This document shows, one piece after another, positions 40,399 through 64,000 of a stretch of DNA of 64,000 nt; within the stretch, counting starts at the first letter, position 1; each line of letters starts with the position of its first letter. The notes below the pieces were generated by a model. That model was given only the letters and a program-made list of their open reading frames with translations, made no database searches and was not told the origin of the DNA. Made by a program: the position numbers and the translations under genes. The stretch spans positions 3,868 to 67,867 of the forward strand of contig CBDCGU010000003.1 in the NCBI GenBank assembly GCA_965216945.1. The letters run 5' to 3'. Source of the stretch: Acidimicrobiia bacterium (GTDB lineage: Bacteria > Actinomycetota > Acidimicrobiia > Spongiisociales > UBA5794).

Positions 40399-40426
40399 GA
40401 TACGGAACGGTCCTACATGGTGGAAC
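40399..40426. promoter_or_regulatory. Conserved 28-nt cis-element GATACGGAACGGTCCTACATGGTGGAAC (copy 1) in the corrinoid-operon / dmgdh divergent region
   Basis: 24 of 28 positions are identical to 55267-55294 upstream of fhs. The element is built from overlapping imperfect palindromes of the type GTnCCAC-ATS-GTGGnAC. Confidence 0.5.
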
Positions 40427-40574
40427 ACTACAACACCGGCATCCCCCTCGCCACCCGTTCCGCTGCCGCCGGATCGACCCGGAGTCACATTGAACAGCCC
40501 TCTGGCGGGCCAGTAGCGTGGTTCTGGGAATGCGTCACCCGCCGCCGGCAGGTAGTGTTCCACCATGTAGCATC

Positions 40575-40591
40575 GTGCCACATCGTGGTAC
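40575..40591. promoter_or_regulatory. Palindromic site GTGCCAC-ATC-GTGGTAC immediately upstream of dmgdh
   Basis: 7-3-7 inverted repeat with one mismatch. Related to the sites at 55278-55294 and 57595-57611. Confidence 0.45.
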
Positions 40592-40630: not shown

Positions 40631-43141
40631 GTGAGCGATCTACCCACGAAGGCAAAGGTCGTCGTCGTCGGCGCCGGCATCGTCGGGAACTCGGTCGTGA
40701 AGCATCTCGCCGAGCTCGGGTGGCGTGAGATCGTGCAGCTCGACAAAGGCCCACTCCCCAACCCCGGCGGCTCCACAGGACATGCGTCCAACTTCATCTT
40801 CCCGGTCGACCACAACAAGGAAATGGCCTACCTGACGCTGGACAGCCAGCAGCAGTACGAAGAGATGGGCGTCAACACGACGTGTGGTGGCATCGAAGTG
40901 GCCCGGACCGAGGCGCGCATGGAGGAGCTGAAGCGGCGTATGACGTCCGCCACCGCCTGGGGCATCGAGTCCAGGCTGCTCACCCCGCAGGAGGTGAAGG
41001 AGATGGTGCCGTTCATCGACGAGGGCATCATCCTCGGCGGATGGTACACACCGAGCGTCTCGGTCGTCGACTCCCTACGCGCCGGCACGATCATGCGAGA
41101 ACGTGCCATGGAGCTCGGGGCCCTCACCGTCTCCCCCAACACCGAGGTGACCGACGTCACCGTCGAGGACGGCGCCGTGACGGGAGTCACGACGGACAAG
41201 GGCCACATCGAATGCGAGTACGTCGTGATCGCCTGTGGTGTGTGGAGCCCGCGCATCGCGGCAATGGCGGGAGCGACCATCCCACTGACGCCCGCCGTTC
41301 ACCAGATGATCGACGTGGGGCCGCTCGAGCCGCTGCAGTCGACCAACAACGAGATCGGCTACCCGATCGTGCGCGACATGGACACGTTCTGCTACGAAAG
41401 ACAGACGGCGGGTTCCATGGAGGTCGGCTCGTACGCCCACCGACCGATCTTCCACCACCCCGACACGATCCCCTCGATCGAGGAGTCGCGGCTCTCCCCC
41501 ACCGAGCTGCCGCTGACGATGGACGACTTCGACCCCCAACTCGAACAGGCCCTGGAGCTGATGCCGTTCCTCGGCGACGCCGAGATCAAATACGGCATCA
41601 ACGGATTGCTCTCCCTGACACCGGATGCGATGCCCCTCGTCGGCGAGACGGTCGAGGTACGAAACCTCTGGTCGTGTGCCGCCATCTGGATCAAGGAGGG
41701 CCCGGGCACGGGCCGGGCGCTCGCCGAGTGGATGACCTATGGCTATCCGGAGATCGACCCGCACGCCTCGGACATCGCCCGTTTCTACACCTACCAGCGG
41801 AGCGAGCATCACATCCTCGAGCGCTGCGCCGAGCACTTCAACAAGACATACGGCATCGTTCACCCGCGCGAGCAGTGGGACTCGGAGCGGCTGAGCCGGA
41901 TCGCCCCGTTTCACGTGCGGACTCAAGCGCTGGGCGCCGTCTACTTCGAGGCCGGAGGGTGGGAGCGGCCCCACTGGTACGAGAGCAATACCCCGCTGCT
42001 GGAGAAGTACGCCGACCAGATCCCGGAGCGTCCCCACGAGTGGGATGCCCGATGGTGGTCGCCGATTCAGAACGCCGAGCACCTCGCCCTCCGCGAGAGC
42101 GTCGGAATGGTCGACGTGACAGCGTTCGCCATCTTCGACTTCACCGGACCTGGAGTGGTCGACTACATCGAGAAGATGGCGGTGAACAAGTGCGACCGAC
42201 CCGTCGGCGCGGCGATCTACACACCGCTGTTGAACGAGCAGGGAGGGTTCCGCTCCGACCTGACCATCATGCGCCTCGGCGACAGGCACTTCCGGGTCGT
42301 CACGGGTGGATTCGACGGAGGACGCGACAAGTACTGGTTCCGCAAGTGGCTGCCGCACGATGGGTCGGTGGTGATGGAGGACATGACATCCGCGATCTGC
42401 ACGGTCGGCGTGTGGGGCCCCAACGCCCGCAACCTCGTGAGCACGGTCACCCGCGACGACATCTCCAACGAAGGCTTCCGCTACGGCTCCGTCAAGCAGG
42501 TGACCATCGGGTCCATCCCATGCACGATGTTCAGGATCTCCTACGTCGGTGATCTGGGCTGGGAGATCTACACCAACATGGAGCACGGTCTGAAGCTGTG
42601 GGACCTCCTCTGGGAGGCCGGCCAGGAGTTCGGCGTGGTCCCGGTCGGAGCCGGGGTCTACGGGACGACGGGGCGGCTCGAGAAGGGATACCGGCTGATG
42701 GGAGCCGAGCTCGAGTCCGAGTACACGCCGATCGAGGCCGGTCTGGCCCGGCCCAAGGTGAAGGCCGCCGACTTCATCGGCAAGGCGGCCTATCTCGCCG
42801 CCCGCGAGGAAGAGCCCGCCGCCATCTGCTGCACGCTCACGATGGAGTCGCACGTCTCCGACTCCGGTATTGCCCGGTTCCCGATGGGCGGCAACGAACC
42901 GATCCTCACGCTCGACGGCCGGCGCATCGTCGATGGCAAGGGCCGAGTCTCGCGAGTCACCAGCGCCGGCGCCGGTCCCTCGGTCGGCAAATACCTGCTT
43001 CTCGGATACCTGCCGCCCGAGTACGCCGTCGTGGGCACCGAGTTGCAGATCATGTACCAGAACGAGTTGTTCCCGGTGAAGGTGGCCGTAGCCGGGAGCA
43101 CACCGCTGTTCGATCCCGACGACACGCGCATGAAGGCCTGA
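40631..43141 (+). CDS. Dimethylglycine/sarcosine dehydrogenase family (FAD oxidase domain + GcvT-like folate-binding domain)
   Basis: 836 aa. Dinucleotide fold VVVVGAGIVGNS. GGSTGHASN carries the conserved His for covalent FAD. C-terminal aminomethyltransferase-like domain. GTG start with a GAAGGAG RBS. Confidence 0.85.
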   Translation: MSDLPTKAKVVVVGAGIVGNSVVKHLAELGWREIVQLDKGPLPNPGGSTGHASNFIFPVDHNKEMAYLTLDSQQQYEEMGVNTTCGGIEVARTEARMEELKRRMTSATAWGIESRLLTPQEVKEMVPFIDEGIILGGWYTPSVSVVDSLRAGTIMRERAMELGALTVSPNTEVTDVTVEDGAVTGVTTDKGHIECEYVVIACGVWSPRIAAMAGATIPLTPAVHQMIDVGPLEPLQSTNNEIGYPIVRDMDTFCYERQTAGSMEVGSYAHRPIFHHPDTIPSIEESRLSPTELPLTMDDFDPQLEQALELMPFLGDAEIKYGINGLLSLTPDAMPLVGETVEVRNLWSCAAIWIKEGPGTGRALAEWMTYGYPEIDPHASDIARFYTYQRSEHHILERCAEHFNKTYGIVHPREQWDSERLSRIAPFHVRTQALGAVYFEAGGWERPHWYESNTPLLEKYADQIPERPHEWDARWWSPIQNAEHLALRESVGMVDVTAFAIFDFTGPGVVDYIEKMAVNKCDRPVGAAIYTPLLNEQGGFRSDLTIMRLGDRHFRVVTGGFDGGRDKYWFRKWLPHDGSVVMEDMTSAICTVGVWGPNARNLVSTVTRDDISNEGFRYGSVKQVTIGSIPCTMFRISYVGDLGWEIYTNMEHGLKLWDLLWEAGQEFGVVPVGAGVYGTTGRLEKGYRLMGAELESEYTPIEAGLARPKVKAADFIGKAAYLAAREEEPAAICCTLTMESHVSDSGIARFPMGGNEPILTLDGRRIVDGKGRVSRVTSAGAGPSVGKYLLLGYLPPEYAVVGTELQIMYQNELFPVKVAVAGSTPLFDPDDTRMKA

Positions 43142-53449: not shown

Positions 53450-55246
53450 TCAGAACAATCCGACGACGTTGCCGTCCTCGTCGATATCGACATTCATGTA
53501 CGCAGGCTTCGTGCCGAGACCCGGCATGGTTCGCATCTCGCCGAGCAGCGGGTAGATGAAGCCGGCACCGACAGATGCGCGCACCTCCCGCACCGGCACC
53601 GTGAAGCCAGAAGGTGCGCCCTTCAGCGCCGGATCGTGAGAGATCGACAGATGGGTCTTCGCCATGCAGATCGGCAGATACCCGAATCCGGACCGCTCGA
53701 ACTCGGCGATCTGCCGCTCGGCGACCGGGGCGTATTCCACCTCGGCGGCTCCATAGATCTGCGTCGCGATCGCCTCGATCTTCTCCTTGATCGACCTGTC
53801 GAGCGGGTAGAGGAATCCGAACTTGGATGGCTCCTCGCACGCCTGCTCGACGGCAGCAGCGAGCTCCAACGCACCTTTGCCGCCCTCGGCCCAGTGGTTC
53901 GATCGCACGGCGGAGGAGGCGCCCGCATCCATCGCCGCCTCTTGGATGAGCTCCATCTCGCGCCGGGTGTCTGTCGGGAACTGGTTCACCGCAACCACCA
54001 CGGGCACGCCAAATCGACGGGCGTTGGCGACATGTGCCTTCAGATTGGAGAGCCCGGCGCGGAGCAGAGCGAGATTCTCCTCCGTGTAGGCCTTGTCGAG
54101 CGGTCTACCCGGCACGACCTTGGGACCGCCGCCGTGCGTCTTCAGGGCCCGCACCGTCGCCACCAAGACCACGCAGTCCGGCTTGAGGCCGGAGACCCGG
54201 CACTTGATGTCGAAGAACTTCTCCATACCCATGTCGGCACCGAAGCCGGATTCGGTCACGACGTAGTCCCCGATGTGGAGCGCCACCCTGTCGGCGAGGA
54301 TCGAGGAGTTGCCGTGGGCGATATTGGCGAACGGACCCGCATGGACGAAAGCGAGCTGCCCCTCGAGCGTCTGCATGATCGTCGGGTGGAGCGTCTCCTT
54401 CATCAGGACGGCGACTGCTCCGGCGACACCGACGTCCTCGAGTGTCACCGGCTCGTTGCTCTTCGAGGTGCCGATGACGACCCGCCCACAACGTTCGCGG
54501 AAGTTGCGCAGCGCCGAGGCATAGTCGGACCCGTCGACGAGGGCCAAGATCGCCATCAGCTCCGAAGCCACGGTGATGTCGTAACCGGTCTCACGCGGTC
54601 GCCCGTCCGCCGAGCCGCCGAGCCCGATGATCGTGTTACGGAGTGCCCGGTCGTTGACATCGACGACACGACGCCACGAGATCCTGTTGGGATCGAGGGA
54701 GATCCGTTCGAGCCCGAGTGCGGCGAGCCGGTCGTCGGTGAGCCTTCCCTCGTGGTACCAGCGGGCATCGATCGCGGCCGCAACGAGGTTGTGGGCCACC
54801 GAGATGGCATGCATGTCGCCCGTGAGATGGAGGTTGAACTCGTCCATGGGGATCACCTGGGAGTAGCCGCCACCGGCGGCACCACCCTTGATCCCGAACG
54901 TCGGGCCCATCGACGGCTGGCGGATGGCGGCGATCGCCTTGTGCCCGCGCCGCCCGAGCCCCTGGACGAGACCGATCGTCGTCGTGGTCTTGCCCTCGCC
55001 GAGTGGCGTGGGAGTGATCGCCGTGACGTCGACGTACTTGCCGTGCGGGTTGGCGCCGATTCTCTTGAGAGCGTCGAGGTGGACCTTGGCCTTTGTCGTG
55101 CCGAAGGCGATCAGGTCGTCGTCCTCGAGACCATGCCGACGGGCGACGTCGAAGATCGGCTCGACGGTCGCCTGCTGTGCGATCTCGAGATCGCTGGGAA
55201 CCCCGCTCATGGTTTCTCCGCGGTTGGTGAATCGGGCCGGGAGCAC
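53450..55246 (-). CDS. fhs: Formate--tetrahydrofolate ligase
   Basis: 598 aa FTHFS over the full length (TPTPLGEGKTTTTIGL...AVNQFPTDT...). Its stop is 130 nt upstream of the fdhA start. Confidence 0.9.
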   Translation of the reverse strand: MLPARFTNRGETMSGVPSDLEIAQQATVEPIFDVARRHGLEDDDLIAFGTTKAKVHLDALKRIGANPHGKYVDVTAITPTPLGEGKTTTTIGLVQGLGRRGHKAIAAIRQPSMGPTFGIKGGAAGGGYSQVIPMDEFNLHLTGDMHAISVAHNLVAAAIDARWYHEGRLTDDRLAALGLERISLDPNRISWRRVVDVNDRALRNTIIGLGGSADGRPRETGYDITVASELMAILALVDGSDYASALRNFRERCGRVVIGTSKSNEPVTLEDVGVAGAVAVLMKETLHPTIMQTLEGQLAFVHAGPFANIAHGNSSILADRVALHIGDYVVTESGFGADMGMEKFFDIKCRVSGLKPDCVVLVATVRALKTHGGGPKVVPGRPLDKAYTEENLALLRAGLSNLKAHVANARRFGVPVVVAVNQFPTDTRREMELIQEAAMDAGASSAVRSNHWAEGGKGALELAAAVEQACEEPSKFGFLYPLDRSIKEKIEAIATQIYGAAEVEYAPVAERQIAEFERSGFGYLPICMAKTHLSISHDPALKGAPSGFTVPVREVRASVGAGFIYPLLGEMRTMPGLGTKPAYMNVDIDEDGNVVGLF

Positions 55247-55266
55247 CCTAGCGCACAGTGTGCTGC

Positions 55267-55294
55267 GATACGGGACGGTCCCGCATCGTGGTAC
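55267..55294. promoter_or_regulatory. Conserved 28-nt cis-element GATACGGGACGGTCCCGCATCGTGGTAC (copy 2) upstream of fhs, divergent from the MFS gene
   Basis: 24/28 identity with 40399-40426. Contains the palindromes CGGGAC-G-GTCCCG and GTCCCGC-ATC-GTGGTAC. Confidence 0.5.
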
Positions 55295-55415
55295 GAACCG
55301 TCAGACCGAGATGGCCGAGAAGGTGTGGACACAGGGTCACCTGCGGCGATAGTCTCCCGGGCCCATCGCAACGACGTGGGACGGGCTCGAGATCCGGCGG
55401 ACCCGAGAGAGCGCG

Positions 55416-56795
55416 ATGACAGGCGTCGTCGTGCGGGCAACCGGCTCCCTGTCCGTGAGGACAGCTCTCTTGTCGCCGGGAGGCGTCGTGGGCATCGACC
55501 AGCGTCCCGCACCGGGCCATCGCAACACAACAACCACTGCCGCCCTCGGCTCGTGGGGCTTGCTGCTGGCAGTGTTGTTCCTCCAGTTGGGGAACGGTCT
55601 CCTGGGCACCGTCATCGGGCTCAGATCTGAGATCGCCGGGTTCGGCGACGGCGCGATCGGTCTCATCCTCTCCGGGTACTACACGGGCTTCCTGCTCGGC
55701 GCCATCGTCGTGCCGAAGTTCGTTGGCTCGGTCGGCCACATCCGCGTGTACGCCGCCCTCGCCTCCCTGGCCAGCACGGCTGCGCTCGTCTATGCGCTGA
55801 GCGACGATCCCATGCTGTGGTTCTTCATGCGGGTCGTGGGCGGGTTCGCCCTCTCCGGGCTGTACATCGTCGCCGAGAGCTGGCTCAACGATCAATCCAC
55901 CAACGAGACGAGGGGACGGCTCCTCTCGGTGTACATGATCGTGGTCATGGGCGGCATCGCCGCAAGCCAGCTCCTGCTCACGGTCGCGGACCCCGAGGGT
56001 GCCAGTCTCTTCATCTTGTCGTCGATCTTGGTCTCCCTCGCGGTCGTTCCCGTCACGCTCTCGGTCGGCTCGGCGCCAAGATTCGAATGGGCACCACGGT
56101 TGCCGGTCCGGGAGATCTGGAAGGCGGCACCCGCCGGCGTCGTCGGCGGCTTCGGCGCCGGAATCACCAACGGCGGCATCATGGCGATCGGGGCGGTCTA
56201 TGCGGCTCGCGTGGGGATGTCGGTCGATCGCATCGCCATCTTCATGGGCCTGCTGATCCTCGGCTCCGTCGTCCTGCAGTGGCCGATTGGTGCGATGTCG
56301 GACCGGATCCGCCGCAGGGTGGCCCTGCTCCTGGTTTCGCTGGCCGCCGCCCTCGTCGCCGCCGCCAATGCGCTGGTGGACCCGCTGAGCTCTGCCGCAC
56401 TCCTGGCGATCTTCACGTTCGGTGGACTCACTTTCCCGATGTATTCACTGTCACTCAGCCACATCAACGACCATGTCCCGGTCGGCACCACGATCTCCGT
56501 CAGCGCGGTCTACGTGTTCATCAGCGGCATCGGGGCGATCGTGGGGCCTCTGGCCGCCTCGGCCACGATGTCGGCCAGTGGCCCCGCCGGGGTGTTCTGG
56601 CTGATGTGTGGCGTTCACCTGGCCGTTGGACTCTTCGCCGCGGGCCGGATCCGTCTGCGGCACGGGCTGCCCGTGGACGCCCAGCGCCGCTATGCCCTCG
56701 TCCCGGCACGTGCGGGAGCGATGATCATCCACCTCGCCCGTCGTCGCCGCCGCTCCCCCGACTCGAACGGTGGAGGGCCGGCAGCCGACGGCTGA
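55416..56795 (+). CDS. MFS transporter
   Basis: 459 aa with 12 predicted TM helices and an MFS-like duplicated 6-TM pattern. Start uncertain. Confidence 0.6.
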   Translation: MTGVVVRATGSLSVRTALLSPGGVVGIDQRPAPGHRNTTTTAALGSWGLLLAVLFLQLGNGLLGTVIGLRSEIAGFGDGAIGLILSGYYTGFLLGAIVVPKFVGSVGHIRVYAALASLASTAALVYALSDDPMLWFFMRVVGGFALSGLYIVAESWLNDQSTNETRGRLLSVYMIVVMGGIAASQLLLTVADPEGASLFILSSILVSLAVVPVTLSVGSAPRFEWAPRLPVREIWKAAPAGVVGGFGAGITNGGIMAIGAVYAARVGMSVDRIAIFMGLLILGSVVLQWPIGAMSDRIRRRVALLLVSLAAALVAAANALVDPLSSAALLAIFTFGGLTFPMYSLSLSHINDHVPVGTTISVSAVYVFISGIGAIVGPLAASATMSASGPAGVFWLMCGVHLAVGLFAAGRIRLRHGLPVDAQRRYALVPARAGAMIIHLARRRRRSPDSNGGGPAADG

Positions 56796-56822
56796 CGGCT
56801 CACGGCTGACGGCCGGAGCCAC

Positions 56823-57572
56823 TCACTGCTCTGCGCGATGCGCATCCGTCAGGCTGGCCGCGACGTCGGCAACCCGCTCGCCGATCGCATCCGGATCGCG
56901 ACCACCGGGGAACCTATATGCGGGTCCGTGAATACCAATGGCGCCGATGATCCCTGTCCTGCCGAGGACCGGCGCCGCGACCGAATGGAGCTCCTCGGTG
57001 AGCTCGCCGTGCGCCCATGCATACCCCTGGCGCCGGACGCTCTCCATGCGGGAGACGATGGCGTCAGGATCGGTGACGGAGTGTGACGTCGCCACCTCGA
57101 GGGGCCCCGCGAGCACACGTTGCACGACGGCGACCGGCGAGTGCGCCAGGATCGCAAGTCCGGCGGGCACGAGGTGATAGGGGGCGACCGTGCCGGTCCA
57201 GTCCCTCACCAGGATCGAGTTGTCGGCCGACTCTTGCGCCACGTAGTGGACACCGGAGCGCACCGGGACGCTCACCCCGGCATCTTCCCCGAACTCCTGA
57301 GCGAGTGTGCGTAGGTAGGGCCGGGCGTGCTGGACGAAGTCCGCAGTCGTCGTGCCGTCGCTGACGAGGCTGCGCACCATGTCCCCGATCCGGTAGGTCC
57401 CGTCATCCTCGTCGCGATCGACGGCGCCGATCGACGTGAGCGTGTTGAGGAGGCGCGCCACCGTCGACTTCGGGAGGTCGACCTCATCGGCGATCTCGGT
57501 GAGACCCTTGCCCGAGGTCGCAACCCGCTCGAGGATCAGAAAGGCCCGATCGATCGATTGCACTCTGCTCAT
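56823..57572 (-). CDS. IclR-family transcriptional regulator
   Basis: ATG 57572 (MSRVQSIDRAFLILERVA...LTEIADEVDLPKSTVARLLNTL...), HTH plus IclR effector domain. The longer ORF from 57632 would run across the palindromic site at 57595-57611. Confidence 0.7.
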   Translation of the reverse strand: MSRVQSIDRAFLILERVATSGKGLTEIADEVDLPKSTVARLLNTLTSIGAVDRDEDDGTYRIGDMVRSLVSDGTTTADFVQHARPYLRTLAQEFGEDAGVSVPVRSGVHYVAQESADNSILVRDWTGTVAPYHLVPAGLAILAHSPVAVVQRVLAGPLEVATSHSVTDPDAIVSRMESVRRQGYAWAHGELTEELHSVAAPVLGRTGIIGAIGIHGPAYRFPGGRDPDAIGERVADVAASLTDAHRAEQ

Positions 57573-57594
57573 TGCGACACCGCCATGCGGCACG

Positions 57595-57611
57595 GTACCA
57601 CATCGTGGAAC
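57595..57611. promoter_or_regulatory. Near-perfect 7-3-7 palindrome GTACCAC-ATC-GTGGAAC at the iclR promoter/5' end
   Basis: Same consensus as the sites at 40575-40591 and 55278-55294. Located 23 nt upstream of the preferred iclR start, a candidate autoregulatory operator. Confidence 0.45.
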
Positions 57612-57700
57612 AGGCCCCCAGGGGGTCTCCACTCGGCCCTCGTGAAGCTCTTCACAAAGAGGACATATGGCCCTAGATGCATATGCACGAGAGGCAGAAC

Positions 57701-57736
57701 ATGCATCAGATGCATCGCATGCATCAGATGCAGCAG
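57701..57736 (+). repeat. Tandem 9-nt ATGCATCRS reiteration (ATGCATCAG ATGCATCGC ATGCATCAG ATGCAGCAG) at the 5' end/leader of the HTH-PocR gene
   Basis: Four head-to-tail units, each containing the palindromic ATGCAT. If translated they give a His/Met-rich N-terminus (MHQMHRMHQMQQ). Confidence 0.5.
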
Positions 57737-57754
57737 AGACTGGACCAAGCCTCC

Positions 57755-58537
57755 ATGAGCACGCTTCTCACCACCAAAGACCTCCAAGCGATGATCCACG
57801 TCGACAAGTCCACGATCTACCGGATGGCGGAGGACGGCAGGCTCCCGGCCATCAAGGTTGGGCGCCAGTGGCGCTTTCCCGCCGACGCCGTCGAGGCGGT
57901 GCTCGGCAACGGCGTTGTCTCCCACGCCGCGACTCGCGAGGTCGATCCACGACCGACCGACCTCGCCGCGCTCCTGGCGCCCGAAGCTGCGCAGGCCATC
58001 GCCGATCTCGCGGCCGACCTGTTCGGGGTCATGGCCATCGTCACCGACATCGACGGCAACCCACTGACCGATGTGGCCAACCCCTGTGGCTACTTCGCCG
58101 CCATACACGATCAGCCCGGGGCAGTGTCCGGATGCATCGACGGTTGGCGGCAGCTGGCGGACGAGATCGACATCGAGCCCCGTTTCATGCCGAGCCAGCT
58201 CGGTTTTCTCTGCGCCCGCACGTTCATTCGCGTCGGATCGGAGCTCGTCGGCATGCTCATCGTCGGCGGCGTGACCCCCGGCAGCTGGCCCCCGGAGCCG
58301 CAGTTCCTCGAGAAGCTGGCCGGCGAGCTGGAGCTTCCCGTCTCGCTTCTCGTCGACCACGTCGACGAGACGTACTACCTCGACGCGGCGCACCAGCAAT
58401 GGGTGGTCGGTCTGCTGCCCCGCTTCAGCGACCTGATCTCGCGCCTCGCCACCGCCCGCAGCCAACTCTTGTCAAAGCTGGATGCCATCGCCGCCCTCGC
58501 CGGGGCAGCGACATCAACACAAAGGAGCACACAGTGA
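57755..58537 (+). CDS. Transcriptional regulator: excisionase/MerR-type HTH (HTH_17) + PocR-like sensory domain
   Basis: LTTKDLQAMIHVDKSTIYRMAEDGRLPAIKVGRQWRF (HTH_17), followed by a PocR-type ligand-binding region. Start is either ATG 57755 or ATG 57677, which would include the His/Met-rich repeat. Confidence 0.55.
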   Translation: MSTLLTTKDLQAMIHVDKSTIYRMAEDGRLPAIKVGRQWRFPADAVEAVLGNGVVSHAATREVDPRPTDLAALLAPEAAQAIADLAADLFGVMAIVTDIDGNPLTDVANPCGYFAAIHDQPGAVSGCIDGWRQLADEIDIEPRFMPSQLGFLCARTFIRVGSELVGMLIVGGVTPGSWPPEPQFLEKLAGELELPVSLLVDHVDETYYLDAAHQQWVVGLLPRFSDLISRLATARSQLLSKLDAIAALAGAATSTQRSTQ

Positions 58538-59775
58538 AGCGACTACTCGTTCTGGGGGCCGGCACGGCCGGCACGATGGTGGTCAACAAGCTCAGACCAC
58601 GCCTCCCTGCCGACGAATGGTCGATCACCGTCGTCGACGAGGACGAGGTGCACCACTACCAGCCAGGATTCCTCTTCATCCCCTTCGGGATGTACCACCG
58701 CCGCGACGTGGTGAAGCCCAAGCGCCGGTTCATCCCTTCCGGGGTCGACCTCGTGATCGGCCAGATCGATGCCATCGACGCCGCCGCCAACCGCGTCGAG
58801 ATGGTCGACGGGAGCACGCTGGACTACGACTACCTGGTCATCGCCACCGGCACCCACCCTCGACCCGATCAGACGCCGGGGCTCGAGAGCTCGGAGTACG
58901 GCAAGACGATCCATGACTTCTACACCCTCGAAGGGGCCGAGGCCCTCGCCGGCACGCTCCGTTCGTGGGACGGTGGCCGGCTGGCGATCAACGTCATCGA
59001 GATGCCGATCAAGTGCCCGGTGGCGCCCCTGGAGTTCACGTTCCTCGCCGACTGGTTCTTCACAGACAAGGGCATCCGCGATCGGGTCGAGCTGGTCTAT
59101 GTCACGCCGCTGGGCGGAGCGTTCACCAAACCCGTCGCATCGAAGGCACTCGGGCACTTGCTCGAGGAGCGCAAGGTCGGGCTGGAGAGCGACTTCTATC
59201 TCATGGAGGTCGATGCCGACAACCGCAAACTGGTCTCCTACGACGAGCGTGAGGTGCCCTACGACCTGCTGGTCACGGTGCCGGTCAACATGGGCGCCGA
59301 CTTCGTCGCTCGCTCAGGTCTCGGCAACGAGCTGAATCACGTGCCGGTGGACAAGCACACGTTCCTCTCCAAAGACCACGAGAACATCTTCGCTCTCGGC
59401 GACGCTGCCGACCTGCCGACGTCGAAGGCGGGCTCGGTCGCCCACTTCGCCGTCGACATGTTCACCAACAACTTCCTCGACTACATCGAGGGACGCCCGA
59501 TGCTCGAGCAGTTCGACGGTCACGCCAACTGCTTCATCGAATCCGGCTACGGGAAGGGCCTGCTCATCGACTTCAACTACGACACCGAGCCCCTGCCGGG
59601 CAAATACCCGCTACCGGGCGTTGGACCCTTCAGTCTGTTGGAGGAGACCGAGATGAACCACTGGGGCAAGATGATGTTCAAGTGGACGTACTGGAACGTC
59701 TTGTTGCCCGGTCGTGAGCTCCCGCTTCCCGCCCACATGTCCCTCGCCGGGAAGAACCTGGAGGCGTCGTCATGA
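58534..59775 (+). CDS. Sulfide:quinone oxidoreductase-like flavoprotein (FAD-dependent pyridine nucleotide-disulfide oxidoreductase, SQR/NDH-2 family)
   Basis: GTG 58534 preceded by AAAGGAGCACACA. LLVLGAGTAGT dinucleotide motif, IKCPVAPLEF, ALGDAADLPTSKAGSVAHF, and a second Cys in ANCFIESG, consistent with the SQR-type cysteines. Confidence 0.65.
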   Translation: MKRLLVLGAGTAGTMVVNKLRPRLPADEWSITVVDEDEVHHYQPGFLFIPFGMYHRRDVVKPKRRFIPSGVDLVIGQIDAIDAAANRVEMVDGSTLDYDYLVIATGTHPRPDQTPGLESSEYGKTIHDFYTLEGAEALAGTLRSWDGGRLAINVIEMPIKCPVAPLEFTFLADWFFTDKGIRDRVELVYVTPLGGAFTKPVASKALGHLLEERKVGLESDFYLMEVDADNRKLVSYDEREVPYDLLVTVPVNMGADFVARSGLGNELNHVPVDKHTFLSKDHENIFALGDAADLPTSKAGSVAHFAVDMFTNNFLDYIEGRPMLEQFDGHANCFIESGYGKGLLIDFNYDTEPLPGKYPLPGVGPFSLLEETEMNHWGKMMFKWTYWNVLLPGRELPLPAHMSLAGKNLEASS

Positions 59776-60518
59776 CCACCAGGACGGCGGACCGCACCGA
59801 GGTGTTGGAGCGCAAGATCGACCTCCTGGCGGAGCAGGTCGCCCTGCTCACCGAGGAAGCCGTCTGGCGAAAGCGGCAGCGGGAGCAGCTCAATGAGCTC
59901 CTCGCCGACGTGACCCCCCTCGCCGGCGAAGCCATGGCAATGGCGACCCATCAACTCGAAGACCTACGCCAGCGCGGCGATCTGGGCAACCTCGTCGGTC
60001 TGGCGGTCCGTCTGGTCGAGGTGGCGCCGGCGCTCGACCGCATGCTCGTGACGCTCGATTCGCTCTCGGAGCTGGCGGCCGATGCGATGCCATTGACGCA
60101 CGACGCCATGGCGCTGGCGACCGACCGGCTGGGCGAGATGCAACGACGCGGCTATTTCGAGTTCGTCAGAGCAAGCGCCGGGGTCGTGGACAGGGTCGTC
60201 ACCAGCTTCAGCGAGGACGACGTCAACCAGCTCGGCGACAACGTCGTCACCATGCTGGAGACGGTCAAGGAGCTCACCCAACCCGAGATGCTGGCGTTGA
60301 TCCAGCACATGATCGAAGGCTTGCAACGCCAGCAACAGACCGTCGTCGACGAAGCGGAAGAGGCACCCAGCCTCCTCGCCTTGGCGAAGCAGCTCCGCAA
60401 CCCCGACGTGCGCAGGGGCATGGCCCGGGCGCTCAACACCCTCGCCGCCGTCTCCGCCGAGACGGGCCCCGAGACCATTCAAGAGATCAACCAGACACAC
60501 CCGAAAGGAGAGGCGTAA
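59772..60518 (+). CDS. DUF1641-domain protein (accessory protein commonly adjacent to SQR-type oxidoreductases)
   Basis: 248 aa, helical, with internal duplication (LVGLAVRLVEVAPALDRMLVTLDSLSELAADAMPL / ...). Its start overlaps the SQR stop. Confidence 0.55.
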   Translation: MTTRTADRTEVLERKIDLLAEQVALLTEEAVWRKRQREQLNELLADVTPLAGEAMAMATHQLEDLRQRGDLGNLVGLAVRLVEVAPALDRMLVTLDSLSELAADAMPLTHDAMALATDRLGEMQRRGYFEFVRASAGVVDRVVTSFSEDDVNQLGDNVVTMLETVKELTQPEMLALIQHMIEGLQRQQQTVVDEAEEAPSLLALAKQLRNPDVRRGMARALNTLAAVSAETGPETIQEINQTHPKGEA

Positions 60519-60832
60519 TGCCGACCACAACCATCGCCGACCGCGAAGTCACCGTCGACGAAGAGGGCTTCATGACCGTGTACGACGAGTGGGACGAGGA
60601 GCTCGGCGCCGTGCTGGCGAGCCAGATCGGCATCGAGATGACCGAGGACCACTGGCGGGCCGTCAAGTTCCTGCGCGAGGACTTCGCAACCGAGGGCGAG
60701 ACCCCCACCATCCGTCGTGTCAGCTCCGTGGGTGGGATTCCCACCAAGCAGCTGTTCATGCTCTTCCCGAAGAAGCCCGCCAAGAAGATGGCGTACGTGG
60801 CCGGGCTGCCCAAGCCTGCCGGCTGCGTATAG
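60518..60832 (+). CDS. TusE/DsrC-family sulfur relay protein (single C-terminal Cys, TusE-like)
   Basis: 104 aa ending MAYVAGLPKPAGCV, the TusE/DsrC signature C-terminus. There is no second Cys 10 residues upstream, so TusE-type rather than DsrC-type. Confidence 0.7.
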   Translation: MPTTTIADREVTVDEEGFMTVYDEWDEELGAVLASQIGIEMTEDHWRAVKFLREDFATEGETPTIRRVSSVGGIPTKQLFMLFPKKPAKKMAYVAGLPKPAGCV

Positions 60833-60882
60833 GGACGGCACTCCACCGAGCATCTCGACTTCCGAACGCGAAAGGACCACAC

Positions 60883-61416
60883 ATGACAACCACCGAGGCA
60901 GCTCCCGCGGTCGTCCCGGACTTCGGCGACGACGCCGAGGAGCGCCAGATCTGCTTCATCTGCTCCAAGGGCGACCTGGACATGGCCTACCCGGCGCTCA
61001 TCATGGCCAACGGGGCCCTCACCGAGGGTGTCGAGGTGGACATCTTCTTCACCTTCTGGGGCATGGACATGATCAACAAAGGTACGTGGGACAACCTGCA
61101 GTTCTCGATGCTCGGCAACACGGCCATGCACATGCCGGGCTCGTCGAAGCACCTGCCCCAGGGCTTGGGCGGACTCCCCGGCATGACGAGCTTCGCCACC
61201 AAGATGCTGAAGAAGCAGATTGCCGATCTCAACGTGCCCGAGGTCCCCGAGTTCCTCCAGTTGCTCCACGACATGGGAGCCCGGTTCTGGGCCTGCAAGA
61301 TGTCCGTCGACATGATGGGGCTCACCAAGGACGACATGTTCGAGGGCGTCGAGGACATCATCAACGTCAACGAGTTCATCGAGCTGTCGAGCGGATCGCA
61401 AGTGATCTTCGTCTAG
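60883..61416 (+). CDS. DsrE/DsrF-like sulfur-carrier family protein
   Basis: ATG 60883 preceded by AAAGGACCACAC. RQICFICSKGDLDMAYPALIMANGAL...IFFTFWGMDMI matches the DsrE2/DsrE-like fold. Confidence 0.6.
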   Translation: MTTTEAAPAVVPDFGDDAEERQICFICSKGDLDMAYPALIMANGALTEGVEVDIFFTFWGMDMINKGTWDNLQFSMLGNTAMHMPGSSKHLPQGLGGLPGMTSFATKMLKKQIADLNVPEVPEFLQLLHDMGARFWACKMSVDMMGLTKDDMFEGVEDIINVNEFIELSSGSQVIFV

Positions 61417-61498
61417 TCCCACGCGCACGTGCCGGGTACCGAACACGAGGTACCCGGTACGTTGGCTCCCCACCTCTCGACGTACGAGGAGAAACACA

Positions 61499-61891
61499 TT
61501 GTCCAACTACACCTTTGGCGTGACACTCGACGACGACTTCGAGCTCGTCGTGGACCGGGTCACCGGAGCACTCGCCGAGGAAGGCTTCGGCGTGCTCACC
61601 ACGATCGACGTCCAAGCCACGATGAAGGCGAAGCTCGACATCGACCGCGATCCGTACATGATCCTCGGCGCCTGTAATCCTCCGTTGGCCAACCGGGCCA
61701 TCTCGGCAGAGCCGTCGATCGGTGCGCTGCTCCCTTGCAATGTGGTCGTTCGCCAAGACGGCCGGCGGGTCGTGGTCGAGTTCATGGATCCGGCGGCGGT
61801 GCTGAGGATCGTCGACAACCCCGACGTCCCCCAGCTGGCCGACGAAGTCCGGAGCCGCCTCGACAAGGTGGCCCGCGCCATCGCCGCCTGA
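61499..61891 (+). CDS. DUF302-domain protein
   Basis: TTG start preceded by GAGGAGAAACACA. 130 aa (FGVTLDDDFELVVDRVTGALAEEGFGVLTTIDVQATMKAKL...), DUF302 being commonly linked to sulfur-oxidation gene sets. Confidence 0.6.
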   Translation: MSNYTFGVTLDDDFELVVDRVTGALAEEGFGVLTTIDVQATMKAKLDIDRDPYMILGACNPPLANRAISAEPSIGALLPCNVVVRQDGRRVVVEFMDPAAVLRIVDNPDVPQLADEVRSRLDKVARAIAA

Positions 61892-62009
61892 GCAAGAGGA
61901 CACTTCCACGACGGCCGGCGGCCGGCCCTCGGGACGGGCCCTCGCCGGTCATCGGCACGTCCACTGGTAGCGTCAAGGCCAAGGGAACACGGGAAGTGGA
62001 GTCGACGCC

Positions 62010-64000
62010 TTGACGACGGGCCGTTCATCCGACGCGGGCGATGGCAATCCTCCGGGCTCGGATGCTCGTATAGCCGAGCTGGCCCGGTATGTGCCTCGCA
62101 TCGCCGCGGGCTGGGACGACATCGCCGGCGGCCGCCAATGGTATGAGGTCGAAGGCTCCCTCTGCCTCATCGACGTTTCCGGGTTCACCAGTCTCTCGGA
62201 GCGTCTGGCGACGCGAGGCCGTATCGGCGCCGAGGAGCTGACCGACGTGCTGGGTGCCGTCTTCTCGCCCATGCTGGGAACCGCATACGCATACGGTGGC
62301 AGCCTGATCAAGTTCGGTGGCGATGCGTTGCTCCTGCTGTTCACCGGTGAGGCCCATGCGATCCGGGCGACCTCCGCCGTCACCGCAATGCAGGCGACCC
62401 TACGCCGGACCGAGTTCCCACCAACGGCCGCCGGCCGAGTCAAGCTCCGCATGTCGGTCGGCGTCCATTCCGGCACGATCCAGCTCTTCTGCGTTGGGAC
62501 ATCACATCGCGAGCTCATGATCACCGGCCCTGCCGGCACCGTGACCACCTCCATGGAGCGCATCGCCGACCCGGGAGAGATCGTGGTGAGCTCAGCGACA
62601 CGAGAGCTGCTGCCCGCAGGGGCGACCTCGGCCCCTCGCCAATCTGGCTGGCGTCTGCGATGGCGCAAGCCCGCAGTCGCACCGGAAGGTTTTGCCGGCC
62701 GCGGCGACCTCGCCCGCCACGACATGAGGATATGGATGTCAACGGGACTGCGGTCGTTTCTCACAGCGATGTCGCCGGAGCCCGAGCACCGCACCGTCAC
62801 CGTCGGCTTCGTGCGGTTCTGCTCAGTCGACGACGTGATCGCGACCGAGGGGCTCGAGGCCGTCGCCGCCCACCTGCAGGAAATGGTCGACGTGATCCAA
62901 GCAGCCGCCGAGGCGGAGAGCGTCACCTTCCTGGCCACCGACATCAACGAGGACGGGGGCAAGGTGATCCTCGTTGCCGGTGCCCCCACCGTCCACGAGG
63001 ACGACGAGGGCCGCATGCTGCGAGCGGCGCGCCGCATCGCCGAGGCGAACACCCGATTCGACCTCCACATCGGCGTCAACCGCGGCCACGTGTTTGCGGG
63101 AGAGGTCGGCACGGAGTATCGCTCGACGTACACGGTGATGGGTGACACCGTGAACGTCGCCGCCCGGCTGTGTGGCGCAGCGTGGGCGGGCAAGATCTAT
63201 GCGACGCCCGATGTCCTCGAGCGCTCCCACACCCGGTTTGCCACCACCCAGCTCGACCCCCTCACGGTCAAGGGCAAATCCGAGCCGTTGCTGGTGTACG
63301 ACGTCGGCGAGGAGTTGGGATTCCGAAGTGCCGCAACGCGCACGGATCTGCCGTTCGTGGGTCGCAACGAGGAGCTTGCCCGCCTGAGAGCCACCCTCGA
63401 TCCGAAGCAGGGCGAGACGGGTGCCGTCACCACCGTGACCGGTGAGATGGGCACCGGCAAGAGCCGGCTCGTCGACGAGGCTTTGAGCAATCGAGCCGAC
63501 CTGCGGACGATCGCTCTTCGAGCCGAACCCTATGGCGCTGCCAACCCGTACCGACCGATGCGAGACCCGTTGCGGGACCTGATCGGCATCACACGCGGCT
63601 CACAAGCCGAGATGACAGCAATGCTGCGCGACAGGATCTCCGCCGTCGATGCCTCATTGCTGCCGGTGGTGCCGCTGCTCGGCGATGCAATGCACATCGA
63701 CGTGGCCGAAACGGACGACACCGGTGCGATCGAACCCCGCTTCCGCCGAGACCGCCTCGCCGACGTCGTCATCGAGGTCATGGATCTTCTCCTCGACGGT
63801 CCGGCACTGCTCCTCGTCGAGGACGCCCAGTGGATGGACGAAGCATCGGCGCACTTGCTGGAACGAATCGCCGCTGCAACCAGAACGCGGCACTGGCGAA
63901 TGGTGGTCACCCGACGTCCCGGCGAAGGCGGCTTCGCACCCCCGGACGCAGCCGAGGTGGTGCTCGGACCGCTCACGCCGGAGGAAGCGACCGAGCTCGT
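62010..64000 (+). CDS. Adenylate/guanylate-cyclase-domain regulator (two CHD domains followed by an AAA/NACHT-like ATPase; 3' partial)
   Basis: Open frame from ~62010 (start uncertain, TTG/GTG) to the window end. First cyclase domain YEVEGSLCLIDVSGFTSLSE...FGGDALLLLF...VGVHSGTIQLFCVG. Second is TVGFVRFCSVDD...GVNRGHVFAGEVG...YTVMGDTVNVAARL. Then P-loop VTGEMGTGKSRLV. Confidence 0.6.
   Translation, partial: MTTGRSSDAGDGNPPGSDARIAELARYVPRIAAGWDDIAGGRQWYEVEGSLCLIDVSGFTSLSERLATRGRIGAEELTDVLGAVFSPMLGTAYAYGGSLIKFGGDALLLLFTGEAHAIRATSAVTAMQATLRRTEFPPTAAGRVKLRMSVGVHSGTIQLFCVGTSHRELMITGPAGTVTTSMERIADPGEIVVSSATRELLPAGATSAPRQSGWRLRWRKPAVAPEGFAGRGDLARHDMRIWMSTGLRSFLTAMSPEPEHRTVTVGFVRFCSVDDVIATEGLEAVAAHLQEMVDVIQAAAEAESVTFLATDINEDGGKVILVAGAPTVHEDDEGRMLRAARRIAEANTRFDLHIGVNRGHVFAGEVGTEYRSTYTVMGDTVNVAARLCGAAWAGKIYATPDVLERSHTRFATTQLDPLTVKGKSEPLLVYDVGEELGFRSAATRTDLPFVGRNEELARLRATLDPKQGETGAVTTVTGEMGTGKSRLVDEALSNRADLRTIALRAEPYGAANPYRPMRDPLRDLIGITRGSQAEMTAMLRDRISAVDASLLPVVPLLGDAMHIDVAETDDTGAIEPRFRRDRLADVVIEVMDLLLDGPALLLVEDAQWMDEASAHLLERIAAATRTRHWRMVVTRRPGEGGFAPPDAAEVVLGPLTPEEATEL

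Follow-up and report, generated by a model that had tools for sequence, protein, structure and literature searches.

Six co-oriented genes on the + strand, within positions 57572–61891 of the window (the whole 64,000-nucleotide stretch of Acidimicrobiia DNA analysed here), probably constitute an autoregulated operon for cytoplasmic sulfide oxidation. Judged by sequence, the operon would comprise, in order: an HTH_17-PocR regulator, a sulfide:quinone oxidoreductase (SQR) of type III, a DUF1641-family protein, and two small sulfur carriers, one TusE-like and the other DsrE2-like, with a DUF302 protein as a facultative sixth member. A preliminary description of this DNA had already listed six tightly spaced genes with these domains and called them a set for sulfide oxidation and sulfur relay. 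Our domain calls, made with Pfam and NCBIfam, agree with it on all six open reading frames (ORFs), and the functional label is borne out by the identity of the SQR and by the fixed presence of its TusE-like and DsrE2-like partners.

The conservation of the gene set is best seen by following the regulator. An alignment of its homologues (alignment A1), scanned against one genome per GTDB species, gave 80 loci, mostly from Acidimicrobiia and eight from Chloroflexota (Caldilineaceae/Anaerolineae), in which neighbouring genes were mapped by tblastn with the window proteins; presence is counted over the 61 loci that have at least 4.2 kb of DNA downstream. The gene order is identical in every locus that extends far enough. 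SQR, the TusE-like and the DsrE2-like gene are each found in 61/61 loci, as is the complete regulator–SQR–TusE–DsrE2 series, while DUF1641 is found in 57/61 and DUF302 in 20/61; this is the co-occurrence check that the preliminary description had proposed, and it separates a core from a facultative part. The genes are also tightly joined. In the window a GTGA joins the regulator stop to the SQR start, an ATGA the SQR stop to the DUF1641 start, and the DUF1641 stop shares one base with the TusE start, followed by gaps of 50 nt (TusE–DsrE2) and 82 nt (DsrE2–DUF302). Overlapping stop and start codons recur at 42 of 68 regulator–SQR junctions and 41 of 58 SQR–DUF1641 junctions. No other gene within 6 kb of the operon is common to more than 14/74 loci. 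The nearest relatives of the window proteins come from metagenome-assembled genomes of Acidimicrobiia. Three loci (L026, L029 and L038) are labelled Gammaproteobacteria or Burkholderiales, yet their proteins show identities of the level usual among the Acidimicrobiia copies; mis-binning of the contigs, and not horizontal transfer, is the probable explanation.

The SQR (58534–59775, + strand, 413 residues, GTG start) is clearly assigned to type III: it scores 639.4 bits against NF049943 (cutoff 525), with residues 2–408 aligned to positions 1–406 of the 406-position profile. Its matches in the PDB are to human SQOR (E = 1e-39) and to bacterial SQRs (1e-16 to 1e-11), in comparison with only 5e-9 to 5e-8 for the chains of NDH-2. 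The only two cysteines of the protein, C161 (KCPVAP) and C333 (NCFIESGY), align with the active-site cysteine motifs of human SQOR and are invariant in 74/74 sequences, and the flavin adenine dinucleotide (FAD) motifs GAGTAG and GDAAD are in place. Because the best solved relatives are SQRs, and because both cysteines align and are invariant, the flavoprotein is an SQR and not an NDH-2, just as the preliminary description had supposed when it asked for the catalytic cysteines and FAD residues to be inspected. The full name of the NF049943 model is “type III SQR, selenoprotein subtype”. Selenocysteine was looked for: the window ORF has no in-frame TGA, and cysteine occupies both active-site positions in the 74 orthologues. 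Selenocysteine-containing relatives presumably exist elsewhere. A suspicion of selenocysteine in loci L051 and L059, raised by split high-scoring segment pairs, was dropped on finding frameshifts and no TGA at the cysteine codon; the split genes (L051, 10873–12098; L059, 6205–7415) are either pseudogenes or assembly errors.

Each of the two carriers has an invariant cysteine. The TusE-like protein (60518–60832, + strand, 104 residues; Pfam DsrC, 2e-30) scores 81.6 bits against TIGR03342 (TusE/DsrC/DsvC; cutoff 53.5) and ends in ...GLPKPAGCV, with the penultimate Cys103 as its sole cysteine, conserved in 71/71 sequences. At the place of the second cysteine of DsrC (CysB, about 11 residues before CysA) position 92 is alanine, and no second cysteine column occurs in the 71 orthologues, so the protein, with the penultimate cysteine only, is not DsrC proper. 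Nor is it the TusE equivalog of the tRNA 2-thiouridine relay (NF008562, 62 bits against a cutoff of 191). With no tusBCD in the cluster and with SQR as the fixed partner (61/61), the carriers stand outside a tusBCDE set, as the preliminary description had them. The DsrE2-like protein (60883–61416, + strand, 177 residues; Pfam DrsE_2, 3e-36) scores 125 bits against PF13686 (DrsE_2), compared with 25, and 112 bits against NF047629 (DsrE2), which is under the cutoff of 210; as a DrsE_2 member below the equivalog cutoff it is termed DsrE2-like and not DsrE2. Its Cys138, invariant in 69/69 sequences, would by profile coordinates only be equivalent to Cys78 of DsrE.

The gene between the oxidoreductase and the carriers (59772–60518, + strand) encodes an all-helical protein of 248 residues without cysteine. 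Pfam DUF1641 (PF07849) is recognised at residues 195–224 with 23.9 bits (cutoff 21), and a profile built from 31 orthologues matches ForE1/YjgD (8rqz) with E = 7.5e-7, in an alignment of about 120 residues that takes in the DPE-x-basic head motif; the match of the same profile to YjlC/Ncp is weak (E = 0.1–0.15). The DUF1641 proteins HucM, ForE and Ncp scaffold soluble oxidoreductases and carry quinone between enzyme and membrane (PMC13524794; PMC8808070), and every solved DUF1641 partner reduces quinone (PMC13524794). Since the window protein is related to ForE and is translationally coupled to a quinone-reducing SQR, the most simple reading suggests a candidate scaffold and quinone conduit for the SQR. 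The likeness to ForE (with the formate dehydrogenase ForC), HucM (with the Huc hydrogenase) and Ncp/YjlC (with NDH-2) lies in the common C-terminal head with its DPE-x-basic motif and in the gene adjoining a quinone-reducing oxidoreductase, here one of the same flavoprotein superfamily as NDH-2. The differences are that the partner is an SQR, that the window protein is longer (about 250 residues) with a long N-terminal helical region, and that the SQR retains a putative membrane helix of its own. Our literature searches on DUF1641 and sulfide found no prior description of an SQR–DUF1641 pairing.

Several observations speak against a conduit and would fit instead an unrelated helical adaptor, such as one on which the sulfur carriers dock or one that aids assembly. 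The aromatic, amphipathic C-terminal helix of the SQR is equally conserved with and without a DUF1641 neighbour, the SQRs without one differing only by a few longer tails, so the SQR may bind the membrane by itself. At least 4/61 loci lack DUF1641, which is dispensable there. The AlphaFold2 (AF2) monomer is of low confidence (predicted local distance difference test score, pLDDT, 69; predicted template-modelling score, pTM, 0.27), and a Foldseek search with this model gave no significant match, the best being YjlC at E = 6.4. Finally, in one database ORF of 299 residues on a contig of 546,892 bp (P0194) the C-terminal two thirds of DUF1641 run on into a complete TusE-like protein, which is either a frameshift or lost stop codon, or a real fusion that would hint at a physical contact between the two. 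Against the adaptor stand the profile homology to ForE1 with the head motif included, the quinone-reducing nature of all solved partners, which SQR shares, and the frequent overlap of the DUF1641 gene with the SQR stop; we hold the adaptor to be a possible but rather unlikely explanation.

The regulator (57755–58537, + strand; annotated as 57677–58537) combines a BldC-like HTH_17 winged helix, a PocR sensor domain and a long C-terminal helix. Pfam identifies HTH_17 (1e-13, 51.7 bits) and PocR (3e-12), the latter (PF10114) with 46.9 bits compared with 23.9 and with residues 102–257 aligned to positions 5–160 of the 162-position profile. The AF2 model, with a mean pLDDT of 84.6, has a winged helix, an alpha/beta sensor and a C-terminal helix of about 45 residues, and in Foldseek finds generic GAF/IclR-type sensor domains at low template-modelling scores. 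A search of the sensor part against 1.84 billion representative proteins returned only 220 clusters, essentially all of proteins of about 250 residues, and the 21 aligned relatives from that search all have the HTH_17 N-terminus and the C-terminal helix. Within the sensor, Cys137, Cys153 and Cys179 are invariant in 80/80 SQR-linked sequences. For the helix-turn-helix (HTH) domain the only sequence matches in the PDB, found with the family profile (E = 0.004), are the BldC–DNA complexes 6AMA and 6AMK, and Arg30 of BldC aligns with an invariant arginine of the regulator, Arg49; NF033787 (HTH_BldC) gives 21 bits, under its cutoff of 77. Conserved linkage supports the view that the HTH_17-PocR protein is the dedicated regulator of the operon: its gene lies directly upstream of SQR in 61/61 loci, commonly with the overlap described above, and the preliminary description was right to speak of the cluster's own regulator.

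Upstream of the regulator, an alignment of 160 nt from 79 loci contains three conserved elements, which together we take as the likely control region of the operon. The first is palindrome A (57642–57655), GTGAAG-CT-CTTCAC (GTGAAGCTCTTCAC), of the GTGA-N6-TCAC type; a GTGM-N6-KCAC palindrome is found just upstream of palindrome B in 22/64 loci, and the Chloroflexota carry TGTGACAnnTGTCACA at this position. The second is palindrome B (57660–57675), AGGACATATGGCCCTA in the window, with the family consensus GGGACTTwTGGCCCTA; at least 11 of its 15 specified positions are matched in 64/78 loci, typically 85–92 nt before the regulator start, and the Chloroflexota have GTGACAnnTGTCACTA in its place. 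Directly after palindrome B comes the third element, the candidate operator for the regulator, an array of seven (A)TGCA/GGCA units (57678–57732, + strand), six of them at a strict period of 9 bp (57684, 57693, 57702, 57711, 57720 and 57729) and the seventh 6 nt earlier (57678).

Across the loci the array consists of 3–8 (A)TGCA units with a 9-bp period and with degenerate units reading GGCA or CTGCA, and the unit consensus, A-TGCA-k-r-A-g, is asymmetric, so the units are direct repeats. In the window the three-unit TGCA pattern occurs once, at the array itself, against 0.05 expected by chance. In the 79 loci the frequency of TGCA upstream of the regulator is 3.7 per 130 nt, compared with 0.26–0.38 in coding and far-upstream controls, and the distances between TGCAs peak at 9 nt (95 pairs), 18/19 nt (35 and 35 pairs) and 27/28 nt. 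The 1.26 Mb of locus DNA contains 13 arrays of at least four units, every one of them no more than 200 nt upstream of a regulator start.

The array also accounts for the annotated N-terminus of the regulator. The first 26 residues of the annotated protein (57677–57754), rich in histidine and methionine (MHMHERQNMHQMHRMHQMQQ...), are the in-frame translation of the TGCA array; the homologues, of about 255–262 residues, begin where Met27 lies and span about 91% of the annotated 286-residue protein. Because the homologues start there, because in L001, the closest relative, the array is not in the reading frame of the regulator, and because many units contain no ATG, we place the start at Met27 (57755), and the annotated (database) start is probably wrong. 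For the same reasons, with units that are often GGCA or CTGCA and a period of 9–10 nt, a Met/His-rich leader peptide or N-terminus was rejected as an explanation of the array. A scan for sigma-70 and terminator consensus sequences upstream of the operon gave nothing useful; “TTCACA-17 nt-TAGATG” was considered as a promoter, and the final T of its −10 hexamer is not conserved.

How the regulator might use this array is suggested by its structural relatives. On DNA, BldC forms head-to-tail multimers along 9-bp direct repeats, AATTnnnn(C), whose number varies, and its Arg30 reads a pyrimidine–guanine (YpG) step (PMC5859096). Each TGCA unit contains a TpG step. Given that the HTH matches only BldC–DNA structures, that Arg49 is invariant, that the period is 9 bp and that the TpG steps are present, we infer by analogy that the regulator coats the array in the manner of BldC, and so would autoregulate the operon. 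The Streptomyces protein (6AMA, 6AMK) thus shares with the window regulator its type of HTH, the aligned arginine and 9-bp direct repeats in variable number, which in the window family form the candidate operator. It differs in being a stand-alone domain of 68 residues without a sensor, compared with about 260 residues, a PocR/GAF-like domain and the C-terminal helix here, and in recognising AATTnnnn(C), whereas the window repeats are richer in GC and are accompanied by two palindromes.

As to the signal, persulfide-sensing repressors of sulfide-oxidation operons are known from several families: CstR (CsoR family), SqrR and BigR (both ArsR family), and FisR. Like these, the window protein would be a dedicated regulator beside sqr with conserved cysteines open to sulfane-sulfur bridging or persulfidation. 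In contrast to them, it has a different fold (BldC-like winged HTH plus PocR/GAF-like domain), three cysteines and not a pair, and a predicted direct-repeat operator. The cysteine triad could be a thiol switch reactive towards sulfane sulfur, as in CstR or SqrR, or else what remains of a metal or cluster site with which sulfide reacts.

A regulator that senses something else altogether (the redox state of the quinone pool, oxygen, a metal or a small organic ligand), with the TGCA array being the site of another protein or a promoter element, appears unlikely to us, and a number of points tell in its favour and against a sulfide-responsive switch. PocR domains are generally tied to the sensing of small molecules, and the fold is GAF/PAS-like, resembling the C-terminal domain of IclR, CodY, and the haem-bound GAF domain of DosT. 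Distant members of the family have either a four-cysteine CxxC...C...CH pattern, typical of a metal or cluster site, or no cysteine, and the triad may thus ligate a metal or cluster instead of forming a persulfide switch. His174, preceding LGFLCAR in at least 90% of the homologues and the counterpart of the “CH” motif in the distant members, is glutamine in the window protein (about 58196–58198). The palindromes, for their part, could be sites of another factor or parts of the promoter, and our literature searches on PocR and sulfide found no prior description of a link. These points are answered by the strict coupling of the regulator to SQR, with overlapping genes, by a cysteine triad that is invariant exactly in the SQR-linked clade, by the lack of any other regulator gene conserved beside the operon, and by the 9-bp period of the array, which fits the way in which the one relative of the HTH with a characterised structure binds DNA.

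The DUF302 protein (61499–61891, + strand, 130 residues, TTG start; Pfam DUF302, 9e-26) has two cysteines, Cys59 and Cys80, invariant in 20/20 sequences. Before it, directly 3′ of the DsrE2 stop, lies a GC-rich hairpin with a 14-bp stem (61427–61462, + strand) resembling a terminator or attenuator; the 96 nt from 61410 to 61505 fold with a minimum free energy of −39.1 kcal/mol (z = −3.3). A stem of at least 8 pairs within 150 nt of the DsrE2 stop is found in 52/67 loci, with differing sequences and irrespective of whether DUF302 follows, and the Chloroflexota hairpins at this place resemble canonical terminators. The hairpin is probably the terminator or an attenuator of the operon, with the core transcription unit ending after DsrE2, and DUF302 would be a facultative addition beyond it, attenuated or separately expressed. 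Its status as a core member, assumed in the preliminary description, is not upheld by a gene that is present in a third of the loci and sits behind such a hairpin. The association of DUF302 with sulfide oxidation is all the same recurrent: a DUF302 gene is found in the suoRSCT (sqr) operon of Synechocystis (PMC5061849), and others in the sox clusters of Acidithiobacillia (PMC5037610). In these, as in the window, DUF302 stands beside genes for the oxidation of sulfide or sulfur; in the window family it is, unlike there, facultative and separated by the hairpin from the core operon.

In six related loci (L041, 7815–9782; L042, L044, L054, L072 and L073) a second module lies directly upstream of the HTH_17-PocR gene. 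It is made up of a regulator of the CsoR/RcnR family (CstR-like), a DUF302 gene and an SQR-like gene that is shorter and divergent (NF049943, 315 bits, under the cutoff). The two kinds of regulator co-exist in these loci, which thus hold two differently regulated SQR systems side by side.

The preliminary description placed its own emphasis elsewhere, on a link to one-carbon (C1) metabolism and on a shared leader motif, and both of these turn out to be ordinary. The first reading, which makes the cluster part of a C1/methyl-group catabolic regulon under joint control with the divergent IclR gene, is in our estimate very unlikely. The divergent arrangement is real in the window, and the palindrome TACCACATCGTGGAA adjoins the IclR start (57596–57610); it is probably the “C1-regulon palindrome” of that description. 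Relatives of it with 2–3 mismatches lie at 40411–40425, 40558–40572, 40576–40590 and 55279–55293, the last beside the genes for FTHFS (formate–tetrahydrofolate ligase) and an MFS protein and the other three upstream of a large gene starting near 40631. The five matches at up to three mismatches compare with a mean of 1.0 in shuffles, and 1 of 100 shuffles reaches five, which is only modestly above chance. Among the 80 loci the IclR, MFS and FTHFS neighbours recur in L001 alone, so the link to methyl-group catabolism is local gene order and no property of the module. In all lineages the regulator gene is accompanied by palindrome B and the TGCA array, and the IclR-side palindrome is distinct and physically apart from these cis-elements of the sulfur operon, which supports separate control of the two modules.

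Scarcely credible, finally, is that AAAGGA[GC]CACACA is a functional leader (a duplicated translation control, or a binding signal for a small RNA or a protein) that is shared by the SQR, DsrE2-like and DUF302 genes and coordinates them. What can be said for it is that AAAGGASCACACA occurs exactly twice in the 64-kb window (58521–58533 and 60871–60883), against 0.08 occurrences expected from shuffles, and that in a crude and noisy list of 72 ORF starts of the window CACA or ACAC occurs in the last 10 nt of four, including SQR and DUF302; the DsrE2 gene, which also has the motif, is missing from this list, and the list serves as a rough background only. The two copies are in fact Shine-Dalgarno sequences with their spacers: AAAGGAGCACACA (58521–58533, + strand) is that of SQR and lies inside the last codons of the regulator (Q-R-S-T-Q*), and AAAGGACCACACA (60871–60883, + strand) is that of DsrE2, its final A being the A of the DsrE2 ATG. 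The copies differ by one base in register, the SQR copy ending at −1 of the GTG and the DsrE2 copy including the A of the ATG. The near-identical element that had been described before three genes is therefore present before two, as the third claimed copy, GAGGAGAAACACA before DUF302 (61486–61498), matches the other two at 7/13 at best, with a background mean of about 8/13. The flanks beyond the 13-mer differ, and an Rfam scan of 55000–64000 at E ≤ 1 found no match.

Comparison across the loci shows clearly which part of these leaders is kept. AAGGAG is found upstream of SQR in 61/74 loci, and a Shine-Dalgarno-like sequence in 66/69 DsrE2 leaders, whereas CACACA is limited to 3/74 leaders of SQR, 1/69 of DsrE2 and 0/20 of DUF302. 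The spacer after the AAGGAG of SQR varies (cacaac, cacgac, cgaatc, caaacaa and others), and the last six bases before the start are 69–74% A+C for SQR, TusE and DsrE2. When an SQR leader is compared with a DsrE2 leader, the best 13-nt match has a mean of 8.06 if both come from one locus and of 8.22 if they come from different loci; within- and between-locus similarity being alike, the two leaders do not co-evolve within a genome, and neither a coordinated translation signal nor a duplicated leader is borne out. A match of 12/13, the value in the window, or better is reached by 0.4% of cross-locus leader pairs, and the window's match is an upper-tail coincidence arising from a shared Shine-Dalgarno sequence and A/C-rich composition. 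In essence, the “leader motif” is a strong Shine-Dalgarno sequence with an A/C-rich spacer, of the sort that precedes most genes in the operon family. The overlap with the regulator leaves a mark of its own: the C-terminus of the regulator reads ..QRS.. in most homologues (alignment A1), which is conserved because its codons (CAA AGG AGC, 58519–58527 in the window) form the Shine-Dalgarno sequence of SQR.

The closest described system to the operon is MFUM_v2_0219-21 of Methylacidiphilum fumariolicum SolV (type III SQR, TusA-like protein, DsrE2), which is about 1.7-fold up in sulfide-adapted cells (PMC10205796). Both systems have, in one operon and in a setting of sulfide detoxification or oxidation, a type III SQR followed by a small sulfur carrier and a DsrE2-family protein. 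They differ in the carrier, which is TusA-like in M. fumariolicum and of the TusE/DsrC family in the window, and in that the window operon adds DUF1641 between SQR and the carriers, the HTH_17-PocR regulator at the front, and the predicted repeat-array operator. The module is thus an SQR plus sulfur-carrier operon of a known kind, and its type of regulator, its repeat-array operator and its DUF1641 partner are undescribed in the literature that we searched.

From gene content, synteny, conserved residues, conservation of cis-elements and homologies we infer the following course of events, all of whose biochemical steps, like the nature of the signal, are predictions. The SQR, with its FAD and the pair Cys161/Cys333, would oxidise HS⁻ and pass the electrons to the membrane quinone pool, with the DUF1641 protein acting as its scaffold or quinone conduit and so mirroring the cases of formate dehydrogenase, the Huc hydrogenase and NDH-2. 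Sulfane sulfur formed on the SQR would go to the single reactive cysteines of the TusE-like (Cys103) and DsrE2-like (Cys138) carriers, and DUF302, with its two cysteines, may join in the transfer where it is present. The regulator would bind the 9-bp TGCA array, the adjacent palindromes, or both, upstream of its own gene and thereby set expression, responding to sulfide or sulfane sulfur through its three invariant cysteines. A gap in this scheme, in what becomes of the sulfur, counts against it: of the genes for persulfide dioxygenase, rhodanese, and sulfite exporters or other sulfite-handling proteins, looked for near the operon, none is conserved (at most 14/74 for any neighbour). A bolder proposal joins two claims, that the regulator founds a new class responsive to sulfide or sulfane sulfur (a BldC-like head-to-tail polymer on the TGCA array, switched by the PocR/GAF cysteine triad) and that DUF1641 is an “SQR-coupling protein”; we put it forward tentatively, and would be somewhat surprised to see both claims hold together.

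Type III SQRs are the least understood class of SQR (PMC10205796). A module conserved in two phyla, with two single-cysteine carriers, provides concrete candidates for their sulfur acceptors. The regulator stands outside the known families of sulfide and persulfide sensors and comes with an unusually clear predicted operator, while the SQR–DUF1641 pairing offers a new case on which ideas about the recently discovered quinone-transport scaffolds can be tested. If the conduit reading is true, the quinone-conduit principle of HucM, ForE and Ncp would extend to sulfide oxidation, with SQR as the fourth class of enzyme so served.

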